Shown here: positions 2,685 through 8,444 of the stretch, one piece after another | Position numbering within the stretch: position 1 is the stretch's first letter | Layout of the letters: each line of letters starts with the position of its first letter | DNA from: Lentimicrobium sp. | GTDB lineage: Bacteria > Bacteroidota > Bacteroidia > Bacteroidales > Lentimicrobiaceae | DNA length: 64,000 nt | Assembly: GCA_019429275.1 (NCBI GenBank) | Contig: JAHYJC010000019.1 | Coordinates: 6,081 to 70,080, forward strand | Direction: 5' to 3' | Notes under the pieces: model-generated | What the model was told of the DNA's origin: nothing | The model's database searches: none | The model's input: only the letters and a program-made list of their open reading frames with translations | Program-made: the position numbers and the translations under genes

Positions 2685-4586
2685 TTAATAAGCGCGTTCA
2701 TTTCGCCCTTCGATGTAATTGATGAACGACCGGTTTACAACTTTATTCCCACCCGGAGTTGGATAGTTTCCGGTAAAGTACCAATCGCCTGTATGGTTGG
2801 GTATTGCAGTATGTAGGTCTTCAATGGTCTGAAAAATAACCTGAACTTCTGCTTTACAATCTGAGGGTTTAACCAGTTGAGAAATTTTTGCTGAAATCTG
2901 TTGAGCAGTAAAAGGCCGGTAAATATCTTTTACTTGATTGACTATCTGCTCTTTTGGAAGGTTCTCCTGTAGTTTGCAATTGCGATAAACCTCATTGATT
3001 ACATGCGTCATCCTGTTTTCTTTAAGCAGTTCGATGGCTGCAATGAAGGCAATAAAATCTCCCAATTTTGCCATGTCAATTCCATAACAATCGGGATAAC
3101 GGATCTGAGGAGCCGATGAGGCAATTACAATTTTTCTGGGCTCAAGTCTGTCAAGAATTCTGATAATACTTTTTTTCAGGGTTGTGCCTCTAACGATTGA
3201 ATCGTCGAGCACCACCAGGTTATCAACACCAGGATTCACAACGCCATAAGTTACATCGTACACATGGGCTACCAGGTCGTCGCGGGCATTGTCCTGGGTA
3301 ATGAAAGTGCGCAGCTTAATATCTTTAACTGCAAGTTTTTCAATTCTGGCTTTAAGATTAAAAATCTGATCTATTTTTCCGGTAGTTATTCCGGCACCTT
3401 CCTTCAGAATCAGATCCTTTTTTATACTGTCGCAAAAAGTTCCCAATTCTTCGACGACCCCATAAAAAGCATCAGCAGCAGTGTTGGGGATGTATGAGAA
3501 AACAGTGTTTTTCAGGTCGTGATTTACCGATTTTAAAATGGCCGGAGTGAGCACCCTGCCCAGCCTTTTGCGTTCCTGGTAAATATCTACATCTGTCCCC
3601 CGGCTGAAATAAATACGTTCAAAAGAGCAGGCCGCTTTCTTGCGGGGTTCAAGAATAGGGCTGAGCGTTACTTTTCCGTTATATTCAACAATCAGGGCAT
3701 GTCCGGGCAAAAGTTCCTTTATCTGACTGTGATGCACATTCAGTGCCGTTTGTATGGCAGGCCTTTCAGAAGCAGCAACCACAACCTCTTCATCCTGATA
3801 ATAAAAAGCCGGGCGAATGCCCGATGGGTCTCTGAAAACAAACGAATCGCCATGGCCGAAAAGTCCTGCAATGGCATATCCACCATCCCAATTCAAAGCC
3901 GATTGTTTTAAAATATCAGCAACATCAAGAGCCTCGGCAATTTTGGCGGTAATTTCTTTCTTGGTAAATCCTTCAGCTTTGAAACGCGCATAAAGTTTCT
4001 CATTTTCTTCATCCAGAAAATGGCCGATTTTTTCGAGAATGGTAATCGTATCAGAAGTTTCAACCGGATACTGACCAATTTCAAGGAGCCTTTCGAAAAG
4101 CTCATCCACATTGGTCATGTTGAAATTTCCTGCCAGAACAAGATTGCGGGTCATCCAGTTGTTGGCTCTGATAACCGGATGCAGATTTTTGATGTTGTTT
4201 TTGCCAAATGTTCCGTACCGCAAATGGCCAAGAAAAAGTTCTCCGGCAAATCCGGTATTGTATTTCAGCCATTGCGGATCATGCAATCGATCAGTATGGT
4301 TATTGACAGATTCCTGAATTTCCTCATAGGCCCATTTAAAGACATCAGAAATCGGTGAATTTGAATTTGAGCGATGTCGGTTAATGTATTTTGTTCCTGG
4401 TTTGGGATCAAACCTTATGCAGGCAATTCCAGCACCATCCTGACCTCTGTTATGCTGCTTTTCCATAAGCAGATGAAGTTTATTCAATCCCCAGGTAGAG
4501 GTTCCGTATTGTTTCAGATAATATTCCAGAGGCTTGAGCAGCCGCACCATTGCAATTCCACATTCGTGTTTGATTTGCTCGCTCAT
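2685..4586 (-). CDS. purF: amidophosphoribosyltransferase (long Bacteroidota type)
   Basis: Start moved to MSEQIKHE|CG (propeptide then catalytic Cys); GHLRYGT, CSFERIYF, PRT motif VVLDDSIVRGTT. Confidence 0.9.
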   Translation of the reverse strand: MSEQIKHECGIAMVRLLKPLEYYLKQYGTSTWGLNKLHLLMEKQHNRGQDGAGIACIRFDPKPGTKYINRHRSNSNSPISDVFKWAYEEIQESVNNHTDRLHDPQWLKYNTGFAGELFLGHLRYGTFGKNNIKNLHPVIRANNWMTRNLVLAGNFNMTNVDELFERLLEIGQYPVETSDTITILEKIGHFLDEENEKLYARFKAEGFTKKEITAKIAEALDVADILKQSALNWDGGYAIAGLFGHGDSFVFRDPSGIRPAFYYQDEEVVVAASERPAIQTALNVHHSQIKELLPGHALIVEYNGKVTLSPILEPRKKAACSFERIYFSRGTDVDIYQERKRLGRVLTPAILKSVNHDLKNTVFSYIPNTAADAFYGVVEELGTFCDSIKKDLILKEGAGITTGKIDQIFNLKARIEKLAVKDIKLRTFITQDNARDDLVAHVYDVTYGVVNPGVDNLVVLDDSIVRGTTLKKSIIRILDRLEPRKIVIASSAPQIRYPDCYGIDMAKLGDFIAFIAAIELLKENRMTHVINEVYRNCKLQENLPKEQIVNQVKDIYRPFTAQQISAKISQLVKPSDCKAEVQVIFQTIEDLHTAIPNHTGDWYFTGNYPTPGGNKVVNRSFINYIEGRNERAY

Positions 4587-4658
4587 AAGTTTCCTGGTTT
4601 GCGATAATCTTCTATATTTGCTTGTCGGATGGTTGCATTTCGACTTGAAAAGAAAGTG

Positions 4659-4666
4659 CAAAAATA
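4659..4666 (-). promoter_or_regulatory. -7 promoter element (TATTTTTG) of purF
   Basis: TAnnTTTG match 72 bp upstream of the revised start; it also argues against the longer ORF-track start at 4661. Confidence 0.55.
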
Positions 4667-5335: not shown

Positions 5336-6418
5336 ATGAAATCAAAGATTATTACTTTCATGCTGCTGTTCCCGTTTGTATTTGCATTCGGCCAAAGGCC
5401 ACAACGTTGCGATGTTGCTGTGCCTGAACAGATATTTAAGCAAAAACAACGATCGGTAAGCTTGCAGCCAACCGAAGAACTGAAACTCAGGGTGGCTATG
5501 ACGGTCGCTTCAAACAATTGCCTTTCTTCTGAGCAAGTGAGGCTTCTTGCTGATTTGTTTGTGGATGATTTCAGCCGTCTGGATTTTGTCAAAGCAGCCT
5601 GGCACAATACAGTTGACAAAGAAAATTATTACTTTGTTTACGATGCGTTTGCTTATTTTTCAACTGTCTTTATGTTACACGATTATGTTCAGGCAGTTAG
5701 CAGTCGCCCGCACGACTATATCCCACCTTATGAGCCGCCTTTGAGTCTTAACTTTCCAGCTTTTAATTATCCATCTCCCGAAGGTTACCCCGGGCCAACA
5801 AATTGCAATTCTCCAATCAGAGAGGATGTTTTTCTGGAAATGGCCAGACAGGCACTTGCCAACAATTCTGAAGTTCACCGCTTGATGCTGCTTAAACAAA
5901 TGGCGCAAAATAATTGCATGAGTGTTGCGCAGGCAATGAAATTCTCCTCACTTCTTCAATCAGAAGAAAACCGGCTGAGTTTTTTCAGAGTCGCAATTTT
6001 CTCAATTTATGATCAGAGTAATCTTCCGCTTGGCGCACAAATGTTTGCACACATACCAAACAAGTCTGAGTACAACAGAATGATAAGTAATCCCACGCCT
6101 CAGCCTCAACCCATTGAACCACCTCCATGTGTGGTTTCCGATCCTGAACTTTCGCAGATTTTAACGTCCATTAAAAATGAAAGTTTCAACAGCACCAGAC
6201 TAACGCTTGCAAAACAAATTCTGCGAAGTAAGCAGTGTTTCACCACAGCCCAGGTAAAGGAGATGGTCAGACTTTTTAGTTTTGATGATTCAAGACTCGA
6301 ACTTGCAAAATACGCATGGGATTACACCATCGACCGTGAAAATTATTACCAGGTTGCCGATGCATTTTCATTCAGCAGTAACAAGGAAAAACTGATGAAA
6401 TTCCTTAACACCAAATAG
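5336..6418 (+). CDS. secreted protein with three DUF4476-like repeats
   Basis: Signal peptide MKSKIITFMLLFPFVFAFG; three units resembling C(L/M/F)sxxQv..l..lF..dd.RL.f.k.a...tvDkeNY, linked by Pro-rich segments. Confidence 0.8.
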   Translation: MKSKIITFMLLFPFVFAFGQRPQRCDVAVPEQIFKQKQRSVSLQPTEELKLRVAMTVASNNCLSSEQVRLLADLFVDDFSRLDFVKAAWHNTVDKENYYFVYDAFAYFSTVFMLHDYVQAVSSRPHDYIPPYEPPLSLNFPAFNYPSPEGYPGPTNCNSPIREDVFLEMARQALANNSEVHRLMLLKQMAQNNCMSVAQAMKFSSLLQSEENRLSFFRVAIFSIYDQSNLPLGAQMFAHIPNKSEYNRMISNPTPQPQPIEPPPCVVSDPELSQILTSIKNESFNSTRLTLAKQILRSKQCFTTAQVKEMVRLFSFDDSRLELAKYAWDYTIDRENYYQVADAFSFSSNKEKLMKFLNTK

Positions 6419-6444: not shown

Positions 6445-6478
6445 AGCGGGACAAGTTAAAAATCTTGTCCCGCTTTTT
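6445..6478 (+). terminator. rho-independent terminator
   Basis: AGCGGGACAAG (6445-6455) / CTTGTCCCGCT (6464-6474), an 11-bp stem followed by a T run. Confidence 0.85.
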
Positions 6479-6539: not shown

Positions 6540-6547
6540 TACCTTTG
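6540..6547 (+). promoter_or_regulatory. -7 promoter element (TACCTTTG) of the oxidoreductase gene
   Basis: TAnnTTTG match 28 bp upstream of the ATG at 6576, just after the upstream terminator. Confidence 0.55.
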
Positions 6548-6575: not shown

Positions 6576-8444
6576 ATGGACACTTACCTCAAAGTACTTT
6601 TCGTTAATGCGTCAGACGGTTTTTACAGGACAAAAAAATACAAGGTTGGCGATTTCTTCGGACCTGTTGATCTTGGGTTACATTTGGCCGGAAAATACAA
6701 AAGCCTGAACATTGGAACAGGATTGCTTTCGGGTTCCATTTTTCCGGGATCCAACCGCCTTATCTTCACTGGATTTTCGCCTTGCTGGGGAGGTTTTTAT
6801 ATCTCATCGATGGGAGGAGCCGGGCTGATATTTAATGATCTGGGAATAAACCTGCTTTCACTGGTCGGCAAAGCCAGGGTCCCGTCAATTTTATATTTGA
6901 ACCGCAATCACGGAGAAGAAATACAGCTTGAACTTGAGCCGATAGACCTGAACCAGGTTTGGAATGAGGGACGAAAAGGAATTTATTCACTCATGGATTA
7001 TGTTTTCGCGCATTACCGCGATCGGTACCCGAATAATCCAAGAATACTGGCTACAGGCCCTGCATCACTTTCAACCGATTTTGGTGCGATAGGTTCTGTT
7101 CCCGTTAAACAGGGCGGTTTGTCAAATGTTGATACCTGGGCCGGAAGGGGCGGATTTGGTTCAGCGATGCTGCAAAATCATGGAATTGCGGCTGTTATTT
7201 ACGGAGGCACTCATATTGACGAAGATTTCCGCGACCGCAAAGTTGCTGATGAATGGTTTGTAAACAAATACGCAAAAAAACTGGCCGCCAAGGATCTAGA
7301 AATAACCACAAAATACCGGTTTGATCCGAATTTTGACACCGGAGGAACTTTTGGAGTGAATTATGCAACCATGAGCGATAAACTCATGGCTTTCAATTAC
7401 CAGTCACTTGACTGGGACAAAGAGAAGAGACTTAAGGTTCATCAAAAATTTATTATTAATCATTATCTCAAACAATTCAATGAAGAAACCATCAAACCCA
7501 AACAGCAGTTTACATGCGGAGAACCTTGTGCTGCAGTGTGCAAGAAAATGAACAACAAGTACAAAAAAGATTACGAACCATATCAGACATTGGGGCCTCT
7601 GAGCGGAATTTTTGATCAGCGAGCAGCTGAAAAACTCAATCATCATGCCGACTCCTATGGTTTTGATGCAATTTCAGTTGGTGGAGTTATCTCATGGCTC
7701 ATGGATTGTCTTGATAAAGGTTTATTAAGCCCTGAGGACATAGGAGTGAAAACACAACCAGTCTTTACTCCTGATAATTTTAATCTGGTAAAAGACTCAA
7801 TGCAAAATGCAGAACTTGGATGTGAAATTCTGGATTCAATAATTGAAAAAAAGATTGATCTGAGCGAAGGTGCCCGAAAATATGCCCGACGCCTTTCTAG
7901 AGTAAAAGGAAAAAATCTCCTCGATTATTTTGTTTACAATGCTTTTGCCAGGAATGGCTGGATGGTTCCAAACCAATACTGGACTCCGGGCGCACTCTCT
8001 CCTATGTCAATTATGGGAAAATACTACATGTATTATGGAGATAATTTTATTGCACCCCGCGAGTTGGGAAGGATAAATGCCGCACGCATGGAAGCTGAAC
8101 TCATCATTGACAATATGGGTATATGTCGCTTTCACAGGCTGTGGGCCGAAGAGATGATTCCTGAAATTGTTGAATCGCTCTACGGACTTGGCGAGAACTA
8201 TCTCAAATCCATTAAATTTACAGCCAGCCGGATCAATGGAAGAAATAGCTCTGCTTTCTGGGAGTCGGCTATAAACTGCAACTATATTCTGAGTTTTCTG
8301 CGCCGCAAAAAAGAAGAAGGCCTTGATAGTCCGGAATTTAACAAATGGTTGAATGCTTTTGAAACAGATTTTAAAGAAGCCTCGCTTAATTTCTGGTACG
8401 AAATCCACAAAGGTGTTCAGGAATCATTAAGGGAATTTAACTGA
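6576..8444 (+). CDS. aldehyde:ferredoxin oxidoreductase family (W/Mo-bis-pterin, 4Fe-4S), GAPOR-like
   Basis: SSMGGAG, GPA, WAGRGGFG, TKYRFDPNFDTGGTFGVNY, TCGEPCAAVCKK, YEPY..GPLSG, GFDAISVGG, DNMGICRFHRLW; 622 aa. Confidence 0.85.
   Translation: MDTYLKVLFVNASDGFYRTKKYKVGDFFGPVDLGLHLAGKYKSLNIGTGLLSGSIFPGSNRLIFTGFSPCWGGFYISSMGGAGLIFNDLGINLLSLVGKARVPSILYLNRNHGEEIQLELEPIDLNQVWNEGRKGIYSLMDYVFAHYRDRYPNNPRILATGPASLSTDFGAIGSVPVKQGGLSNVDTWAGRGGFGSAMLQNHGIAAVIYGGTHIDEDFRDRKVADEWFVNKYAKKLAAKDLEITTKYRFDPNFDTGGTFGVNYATMSDKLMAFNYQSLDWDKEKRLKVHQKFIINHYLKQFNEETIKPKQQFTCGEPCAAVCKKMNNKYKKDYEPYQTLGPLSGIFDQRAAEKLNHHADSYGFDAISVGGVISWLMDCLDKGLLSPEDIGVKTQPVFTPDNFNLVKDSMQNAELGCEILDSIIEKKIDLSEGARKYARRLSRVKGKNLLDYFVYNAFARNGWMVPNQYWTPGALSPMSIMGKYYMYYGDNFIAPRELGRINAARMEAELIIDNMGICRFHRLWAEEMIPEIVESLYGLGENYLKSIKFTASRINGRNSSAFWESAINCNYILSFLRRKKEEGLDSPEFNKWLNAFETDFKEASLNFWYEIHKGVQESLREFN

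Follow-up and report, generated by a model that had tools for sequence, protein, structure and literature searches.

Oxidation of glyceraldehyde-3-phosphate (GAP) with ferredoxin as acceptor is known from two kinds of enzyme within the AOR/WOR family of tungsten- and molybdenum-dependent pterin oxidoreductases, GAPOR and GOR. The Pyrococcus enzyme PfGAPOR is monomeric and a Class I WOR, and the GOR of Caldicellulosiruptor bescii is built of two subunits (PMC13328260). Reviews treat GAPOR as the archaeal and GOR as the bacterial solution (PMC12096430); GOR, a bacterial tungsten-dependent GAP oxidoreductase of Class II, forms a separate WOR clade, clade 20, unrelated to GAPOR (PMC12096430). Recombinant GAPOR from Methanococcus maripaludis contained molybdenum (PMC12096430), the paper on Desulfurococcus amylolyticus gives GAPOR as a prediction only, with no activity measurement reported, and a reconstruction from a Margulisbacteria metagenome-assembled genome (MAG) already places GAPOR in bacterial glycolysis (PMC6349859). 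Here we analyze a GAPOR-like gene in a stretch of 64,000 nucleotides from Lentimicrobium sp. (Bacteroidota; positions 6,081 to 70,080 of contig JAHYJC010000019.1), referred to as the window. Judging from sequence comparisons, membership of its product in the GAPOR lineage is essentially certain, and GAP is its probable substrate.

6576..8444, forward strand: coding sequence of a stand-alone GAPOR-lineage pterin oxidoreductase of the AOR/WOR family, ATG start, 622 amino acids

Compared with the archaeal GAPORs, the predicted protein has the same Cx3Cx3C...C cysteine arrangement, both pterin motifs, a second shell in which Thr and Glu are kept, the CRFHR tail and the lineage-specific basic residues; it is likewise encoded by a single gene without a small subunit, with a length of 622 residues compared to 613–654 in the archaeal enzymes. 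It differs from them in being only 34–36% identical, in scoring 345 bits where the archaeal family model sets 1300, in having 20 of 104 conserved positions changed, and in its host, a mesophilic bacterium that also possesses GAPDH and PGK. With the C. bescii GOR it shares the predicted reaction with ferredoxin, and C. bescii, as a fermentative bacterium keeping GAPDH, offers a physiological analogue of the role proposed below. GOR requires a polyferredoxin small subunit, whereas no small-subunit gene adjoins the Lentimicrobium gene; it retains all four second-shell residues (Thr, Glu, Tyr and His; PMC12096430), whereas the corresponding Tyr/His region in Lentimicrobium is a GAPOR-type segment. 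GAPOR-like proteins of DPANN archaea (P0122, P0140 and P0153) match the Lentimicrobium protein in motifs and length, come from archaeal hosts and are equally uncharacterised. Finally, a clade-7 WOR paralogue in the same genome has the superfamily and the cofactor requirement in common with it and probably relies on the same pterin and WtpA genes, but is longer and very distant, adjoins ThiS/ThiF-like and ModE-like/WtpA genes, and is carried by 17 of the 19 Lentimicrobium genomes, as against 5 of 19 for the GAPOR-lineage gene.

Assignment to the GAPOR lineage

An initial annotation, made from the DNA letters alone, had described a 622-residue AOR-family protein that looked closer to GAPOR than to generic AOR. 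The family assignment was confirmed by translation and by the Pfam domains AFOR_N (59.9 bits, cutoff 29.8) and AFOR_C (67.8 bits, cutoff 27), both of which exceed the gathering scores. The closer relationship to GAPOR is borne out by the sole NCBIfam match of the protein, GAPOR_Arch (NF040818; 345 bits, E 6e-103), by BLASTP identities of 34% to the GAPOR of Pyrococcus yayanosii (E 2e-101) and 36% to the orthologue of M. maripaludis C6 (E 5e-107), by the monophyly of the lineage and by the active-site signature, both described below. The solved chains of AOR, FOR and WOR5 were reached by sequence only at E values of 1e-6 to 1e-4. When 1.8 billion cluster representatives were searched exhaustively with phmmer, only 708 relatives were obtained at E ≤0.001, with 171 of them at E ≤1e-30, a number small enough to indicate that the lineage is compact and well separated from other WOR types. 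The third characterised enzyme, the GAPOR of Pyrobaculum aerophilum, was absent from the matches of both archaeal-side homologue searches.

The four peptides on which the initial annotation had relied, TTKYRFDPNFDTGGTFGVNY, TCGEPCAAVCKK, YEPYQTLGPLSG and DNMGICRFHRLW, are present in the translation, and the Pyrococcus motifs quoted there for comparison turned out to be essentially right: the P. yayanosii protein (P0321), named glyceraldehyde-3-phosphate:ferredoxin oxidoreductase by NCBI, contains TVKYRFNPKLNTGGTFGGNY, TCGEPCPVVCKK, YEPYEANG and DNVGWCRFHRGW.

To place the protein among its relatives, maximum-likelihood trees were calculated with IQ-TREE (LG+C20), with four outgroup proteins from this genome and its relatives, two of the canonical AOR type and two of WOR clade 7. 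GOR, FOR and WOR5 were compared by phmmer and Foldseek only, outside the trees, which also lack the P. aerophilum GAPOR. The GAPOR lineage including the Lentimicrobium protein was monophyletic with full support (100/100) against the AOR-type and clade-7 outgroups.

Active-site signature and predicted fold

The motifs that define the cofactor environment were located by alignment and by Pfam at the following positions of the window.

6675..7208, forward strand: AFOR_N domain (Pfam), residues 34–211, cap over the pterin cofactor
7311..7361, forward strand: block K246-Y247 ... G256-G257-T258-F-G260-x-N262, from the alignment
7515..7541, forward strand: C314-GEP-C318-AAV-C322 followed by K323-K324, three proximal [4Fe-4S] ligands with Cx3Cx3C spacing
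7569..7580, forward strand: D332-Y333-E334-P335, from the alignment
7650..7667, forward strand: D359-SYGF-D364, first pterin-binding DxxGxD motif, from the alignment
7968..8060, forward strand: residues 465–495, PNQYWTPGALSPMSIMGKYYMYYG..., GAPOR-lineage-specific segment in place of the second-shell Tyr/His region of other WORs
8109..8138, forward strand: D512-NMGI-C517-R518-F-H520-R521, second pterin motif with the distal [4Fe-4S] cysteine and the GAPOR-specific basic CRFHR tail

Residues C314, C318, C322 and C517 are invariant or nearly so and provide four ligands for one [4Fe-4S] cluster. C314 and C318 align with the second and third cysteines of the Cx2Cx3C motif of AOR, and C517 aligns with the distal cysteine of canonical AOR-type sequences. 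The proximal ligands are spaced as TCGEPCAAVCKK in the Lentimicrobium protein and TCGEPCPVVCKK in Pyrococcus, compared to CFSCHLAC in AOR-type sequences. The C-x3-C-x3-C spacing pointed out in the initial annotation is therefore real and characterizes the whole GAPOR lineage, while the canonical AOR-type relatives have Cx2Cx3C. In the second shell, T258 is the conserved Thr equivalent to Thr243 of Pyrococcus furiosus AOR (PfAOR), and E334 is the conserved Glu, aligned to the Glu of the AOR YE motif (PfAOR Glu313; numbering of both according to PMC12096430). Y247 is specific to the GAPOR lineage.

Across 136 lineage members, 70 alignment columns are at least 90% conserved, and the Lentimicrobium protein keeps the residue in all 70. 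The AOR-type and clade-7 outgroups share 33 of these columns, which comprise cofactor and cluster residues including C318, C322, C517, D359, T258 and E334; the remaining 37 are lineage-specific and include C314, E316, R156, H202, Y247, R285, R434, Y468, W469, R518, H520, R521 and W523. The segment 465–495 is also lineage-specific and is absent from the outgroups. A published signature of the GAPOR clade consists of the retained second-shell Thr and Glu together with a Tyr/His region that cannot be aligned to other WORs (PMC12096430). The Lentimicrobium protein fits this signature, with T258 and E334 conserved and the Tyr/His region replaced by the segment 465–495. The lineage-specific basic residues are a reasonable candidate for a phosphate pocket. 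Considering only archaeal-type sequences, 104 columns are at least 90% conserved, and at 84 of these the same residue is found in at least 90% of the bacterial clade to which the Lentimicrobium protein belongs.

An AlphaFold2 model built on an 80-sequence alignment was confident over the full length (mean pLDDT 93.9, pTM 0.94). Foldseek matched it over the whole chain to AOR/WOR structures only (1aor, 6x1o, 1b25, 9g7j, 9mqx, 8c0z and 4z3w), with E values of 1e-20 to 1e-16, TM scores of 0.60–0.65 and 14–19% identity to the solved AOR, FOR and WOR5. The predicted three-domain AOR fold thus spans the entire modelled protein. To our knowledge, there is no solved structure from the GAPOR lineage.

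Phylogenetic position within the lineage

The earliest branches from the root consist of a few representatives without organism names, followed by a branch that joins the cultured Desulfurococcus and Thermogladius with Odinarchaeota and Pyrodictiaceae MAGs (99/98). The next node (83/91) unites the clade of characterised enzymes with a 33-row clade that contains the Lentimicrobium protein. The characterised-enzyme clade (100/99) comprises Methanococcales, Thermococcales and bacterial Aquificota, and its lineages are the sources of the purified Pyrococcus and recombinant M. maripaludis enzymes. The 33-row clade (89/96) splits first into a pair of Thermoprotei MAGs and the rest, in which a second Thermoprotei MAG, Hadesarchaea and a 29-row group (100/99) form an unresolved trio. 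The 29-row group holds the DPANN archaea, namely the Nanoarchaeota P0140 and P0153 and the Woesearchaeota P0122, plus two terminal sister clades. One of these, a tight clade with full support (100/100), contains the Lentimicrobium protein together with those of Lentimicrobium saccharophilum, Perlabentimonas, Zixibacteria, Desulfobacterales and Vecturithrix. The assignment to GAPOR made in the initial annotation thus holds for the monophyletic lineage, and does not extend to the clade of characterised GAPORs, outside which the protein falls.

Directly outside the two terminal clades stands the Woesearchaeota protein P0122 (45% identity), with support of 100/96 and 100/99. Apart from bacteria, the bacterial clades thus have their closest named relatives among DPANN archaea, and this suggests that the gene passed long ago between DPANN-like archaea and bacteria, in one direction or the other. 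A separate observation concerns Aquificota, where the GAPOR genes of Thermovibrio ammonificans, Balnearium lithotrophicum and T. guaymasensis (P0360, P0361 and P0366) are sister to those of Thermococcales (100/99–100); this looks like a second transfer from archaea to bacteria, unconnected with the large clade of mesophilic bacteria. The clade sister to that of the Lentimicrobium protein includes P0143 with its relatives P0176, P0178 and P0221. P0143 has CGEPCPLASRK instead of the usual CGEPCxxxCKK, the third proximal Cys and the following Lys being replaced, and this suggests that members of that sub-branch may have a modified cluster, perhaps of the 3Fe type, or may have taken on another function.

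Distribution among bacteria and existing annotation

A pattern scan covering one genome per GTDB species, with a profile made from eight lineage members, detected a relative in at least 565 species genomes; the hits kept were the 80 closest to the Lentimicrobium protein, so that archaeal names do not appear among them. All of these best 80 are full-length with 63–81% identity, and they span 12 or more bacterial phyla, mostly of mesophilic anaerobes, with 63–68% identity maintained across this range. Among them are many Bacteroidales and Lentimicrobium MAGs and Perlabentimonas gracilis, as well as Desulfobacterota, Zixibacteria, Ignavibacteria, Spirochaetota (including Leptospirales), Acidobacteriota, Planctomycetota, Campylobacterota, NC10, Cloacimonadota, Atribacterota and Anaeromyxobacter. 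Orthologues with 81–90% identity are present in other Lentimicrobium genomes, and two cultured species are carriers, L. saccharophilum (81% in strain TBC1) and P. gracilis.

Many of the relatives carry the IMG label 'glyceraldehyde-3-phosphate dehydrogenase (ferredoxin)', and NCBI names close homologues with the generic 'aldehyde ferredoxin oxidoreductase'. The initial annotation had called such an enzyme unexpected in this phylum. With a very widespread bacterial clade that includes many Bacteroidales, an existing IMG label and the Margulisbacteria precedent, this part could not be upheld: as far as sequence relationships go, the enzyme is of a known kind, and the gene belongs to a large bacterial branch of it that databases have already annotated, so that it is not a surprise at the level of the phylum.

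Cofactor, metal and energy genes in the genome

The genome assembly (4.19 Mb, 108 contigs, 96% complete) was searched for genes that a tungsten- or molybdenum-pterin enzyme would depend on. A pterin cluster at C51:40819–44922 encodes MoeA, MoaA (294 bits, cutoff 284), MoaC (187 bits) and a MOSC–MoaB fusion, and contig C44 encodes the tungstate-binding protein WtpA (TIGR03730, 314 bits, cutoff 243). The lack of any pterin pathway, which by the initial annotation would have spoken against the assignment, is thus not observed, since MoaA, MoaC, MoeA, MoaB and WtpA were found, and its remark that the window itself has no ferredoxin, pterin-synthesis or tungstate-uptake gene stands as far as checked, the pterin and WtpA genes being on C51 and C44. 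For ferredoxin, a CxxCxxCxxxC scan of the window, which is not fully annotated, gave one weak match only. In 31 genomes (this one and 30 relatives), WOR genes and MoaC each occur in 20 and go together almost perfectly: both are present in 19 genomes and both absent from 10, which leaves 2 discordant cases.

The second WOR of the genome (C44:40731–43325, about 717 residues) is very distant, with 39 bits to GAPOR_Arch, and was assigned to clade 7 by the synteny it shares with L. saccharophilum A0A0S7C571. In the available part of the 92-clade WOR scheme, the Lentimicrobium entry is this clade-7 paralogue and not the GAPOR-lineage gene. Within C44:40124–47000, the clade-7 gene adjoins a 67-residue ThiS/MoaD-like open reading frame with a GG end and a ThiF-like gene, and a pair of genes for a ModE-like regulator and WtpA lies downstream. 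The gene after WtpA encodes an aldehyde dehydrogenase; the permease and ATPase genes of a tungstate transporter were not located there.

Six matches of the [FeFe]-hydrogenase large-subunit type were found in two clusters (C101 and C6), unusually many for one Bacteroidota genome, and this set is consistent with a fermentation centred on ferredoxin and H2. The genome also contains two DMSO-reductase-family matches.

Proposed function and alternatives

We consider it probable, with moderate confidence, that the gene encodes a monomeric, ferredoxin-linked, non-phosphorylating GAP oxidoreductase that serves as an accessory bypass. A Fer4 gene for a WorS-type polyferredoxin small subunit was not found adjoining the gene in the window or at the three other loci compared, and the relatives in Vecturithrix, Desulfobacterales and one metagenome contig likewise stand alone. 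This organization points to a Class I WOR with a single subunit and no WorS-type partner, and would imply a monomeric state. Each subunit would contain a single bis-pyranopterin cofactor with tungsten, or possibly molybdenum, together with a single [4Fe-4S] cluster; the aldehyde would be converted to the acid at the metal site, and two electrons would pass through the cluster to soluble ferredoxin. The likeliest reaction would be the direct conversion of D-glyceraldehyde-3-phosphate to 3-phosphoglycerate without 1,3-bisphosphoglycerate, an irreversible bypass of GAPDH and PGK in which one ATP per triose would be forgone and low-potential electrons gained, which the [FeFe]-hydrogenases could release as H2. 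In Lentimicrobium the enzyme would work beside conventional GAPDH and PGK and would not replace them. For this protein, the identity of the metal, the use of ferredoxin as acceptor and of GAP as substrate, and the role in physiology are all predictions, and specificity for GAP, which we again judge moderately probable, is suggested by the retention of the lineage-specific active-site residues together with the strong conservation across phyla.

A number of findings weigh against this assignment. The score of 345 bits is far under the 1300-bit equivalog cutoff of GAPOR_Arch; the cutoff appears to be tuned to Thermococcales, since the 20 representatives scored (best 841 bits, others 266–623) and the match in the Methanocaldococcus jannaschii control genome stay below it as well. 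The protein lies outside the clade holding the Pyrococcus- and Methanococcus-type enzymes, the assayed enzymes fall neither in the bacterial clade nor in the surrounding 29-row group, and the bacterial clade sits on a long stem (0.45). Bracketing by characterised enzymes is weak, because the joining node reaches only 83/91 and because uniting the classical archaeal-type sequences in one clade that excludes the Lentimicrobium group was not rejected by the approximately unbiased (AU) test (delta lnL 23.2, p = 0.114), so that the group may instead form a separate sister lineage. At 20 of the 104 conserved archaeal-type positions the bacterial clade differs, e.g. W311Q, D187T, E495R, T485M and P559S. 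The gene is patchy, being present in 5 of 19 genomes of the host genus and in 1 of 12 other families of the order, and no glycolytic neighbours were seen at the loci compared. The genome encodes PGK as well as GAPDH, the latter in two good copies besides a weaker third match, so that nothing requires a GAPOR. Finally, a six-frame search for MoaE (PF02391), the large subunit of molybdopterin synthase, gave no match in this genome or in the 30 relatives, while control genomes responded as expected; cofactor synthesis is therefore incompletely accounted for. Either MoaE is very divergent here, or the MOSC–MoaB fusion or the ThiS/ThiF pair inserts the dithiolene sulfurs.

Most of these points, from the phylogenetic position and the long stem to the changed residues, the patchiness in the genus, the lack of glycolytic or conserved neighbours and the presence of GAPDH and PGK, would also fit a GAPOR-lineage tungsten or molybdenum enzyme with the same chemistry and electron path in which the substrate has shifted away from GAP, for instance to non-phosphorylated glyceraldehyde, glycolaldehyde or another phosphorylated or acidic aldehyde, or which serves in aldehyde detoxification; specificity is known to differ widely among WOR clades (PMC13328260). 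We regard such a shift as the main rival, possible though rather unlikely, because all 37 lineage-specific residues are retained, including the basic cluster that may bind phosphate, because 63–68% identity across phyla is easier to reconcile with a substrate from universal central metabolism than with a niche aldehyde, and because the purified enzymes of the GAPOR lineage are GAP oxidoreductases (PMC12096430; PMC13328260). A generic broad-spectrum aldehyde:ferredoxin oxidoreductase, that is AOR in the strict sense, is what the NCBI names of close homologues and the general AFOR domains reported by Pfam would imply. NCBI assigns such names by default, from domain content, to proteins that miss the equivalog cutoff, and the branch that separates the protein from canonical AOR-type sequences (100/100), the Cx3Cx3C in place of Cx2Cx3C spacing, the absence of the second-shell Tyr/His region, and the low identity (14–19%) and TM score (about 0.63) to solved AORs make this explanation very improbable. 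Even less credible is a recent import from archaea or a decaying, non-functional remnant, as the patchiness within the genus and the DPANN archaea as nearest non-bacterial relatives might suggest: the G+C content matches that of the flanks, the frame is intact with all ligands in place, the AlphaFold2 model is confident over the full length, Lentimicrobium orthologues share 81–90% identity, and the clade includes 12 or more phyla, which would make any interdomain transfer ancient. Returning to the GAP oxidoreductase, we tentatively extend the proposal to the whole tight bacterial clade, whose members may, with somewhat lower confidence, be true GAP-specific GAPORs of DPANN-like archaeal origin; in Lentimicrobium and its relatives the cofactor would then be made without a canonical MoaE.

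If this proposal is true, mesophilic bacteria would commonly possess a step of glycolysis that is linked to ferredoxin and non-phosphorylating, in contradiction to the review-level division into an archaeal GAPOR and a bacterial GOR solution. In many mesophilic anaerobes, electrons from glycolysis could then end up on ferredoxin and in H2 rather than on NADH, with ATP as the price; among these anaerobes are Bacteroidales, Desulfobacterota, Spirochaetota, Cloacimonadota and further inhabitants of digesters and sediments. Metabolic models, which now copy the KEGG Orthology (KO) label, would change in their predicted fermentation balances, H2 thresholds and tungsten dependence. The cultured carriers L. 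saccharophilum and P. gracilis make the question directly testable. For the window alone, the gene is an ordinary, already-annotated member of its family.

Putative promoter and gene neighbourhood

Two elements lie between the upstream DUF4476 gene and the oxidoreductase gene.

6445..6474, forward strand: intrinsic terminator hairpin of the upstream DUF4476 gene, 11 pairs, 7 of them G-C, then TTTTTATTTT
6540..6547, forward strand: TACCTTTG, a TAnnTTTG match 28 nt upstream of the oxidoreductase ATG, plausible by position only

TAnnTTTG is the consensus of the Bacteroidota -7 promoter. The initial annotation had assigned the gene its own -7 promoter. In support of this, the TACCTTTG box comes after the strong terminator hairpin at 6445–6474, which makes a separate transcription unit plausible; on the other side, TAnnTTTG turns up in the window no more often than chance would give (70 occurrences seen, 71 expected), and the box by itself is weak evidence for that reason.

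The genes around the oxidoreductase encode a GNAT protein, DUF4476, a metallophosphoesterase, a DcuC-type carrier, MGMT and menaquinone proteins, and none nearby has an obvious functional link to it. Comparing the Lentimicrobium, Vecturithrix, Desulfobacterales and metagenome-contig loci, we found no conserved partner gene. The G+C content of the gene is 0.41, compared to 0.40–0.42 in the surrounding DNA, and a recent horizontal-transfer island was rejected on the grounds that this value is unremarkable against the flanks. Elsewhere in the window, at 2685–4661 on the reverse strand, a 657-residue and for the most part unassigned open reading frame with a TTG start has weak matches only, all of them to glutamine-amidotransferase domains (24–26 bits).

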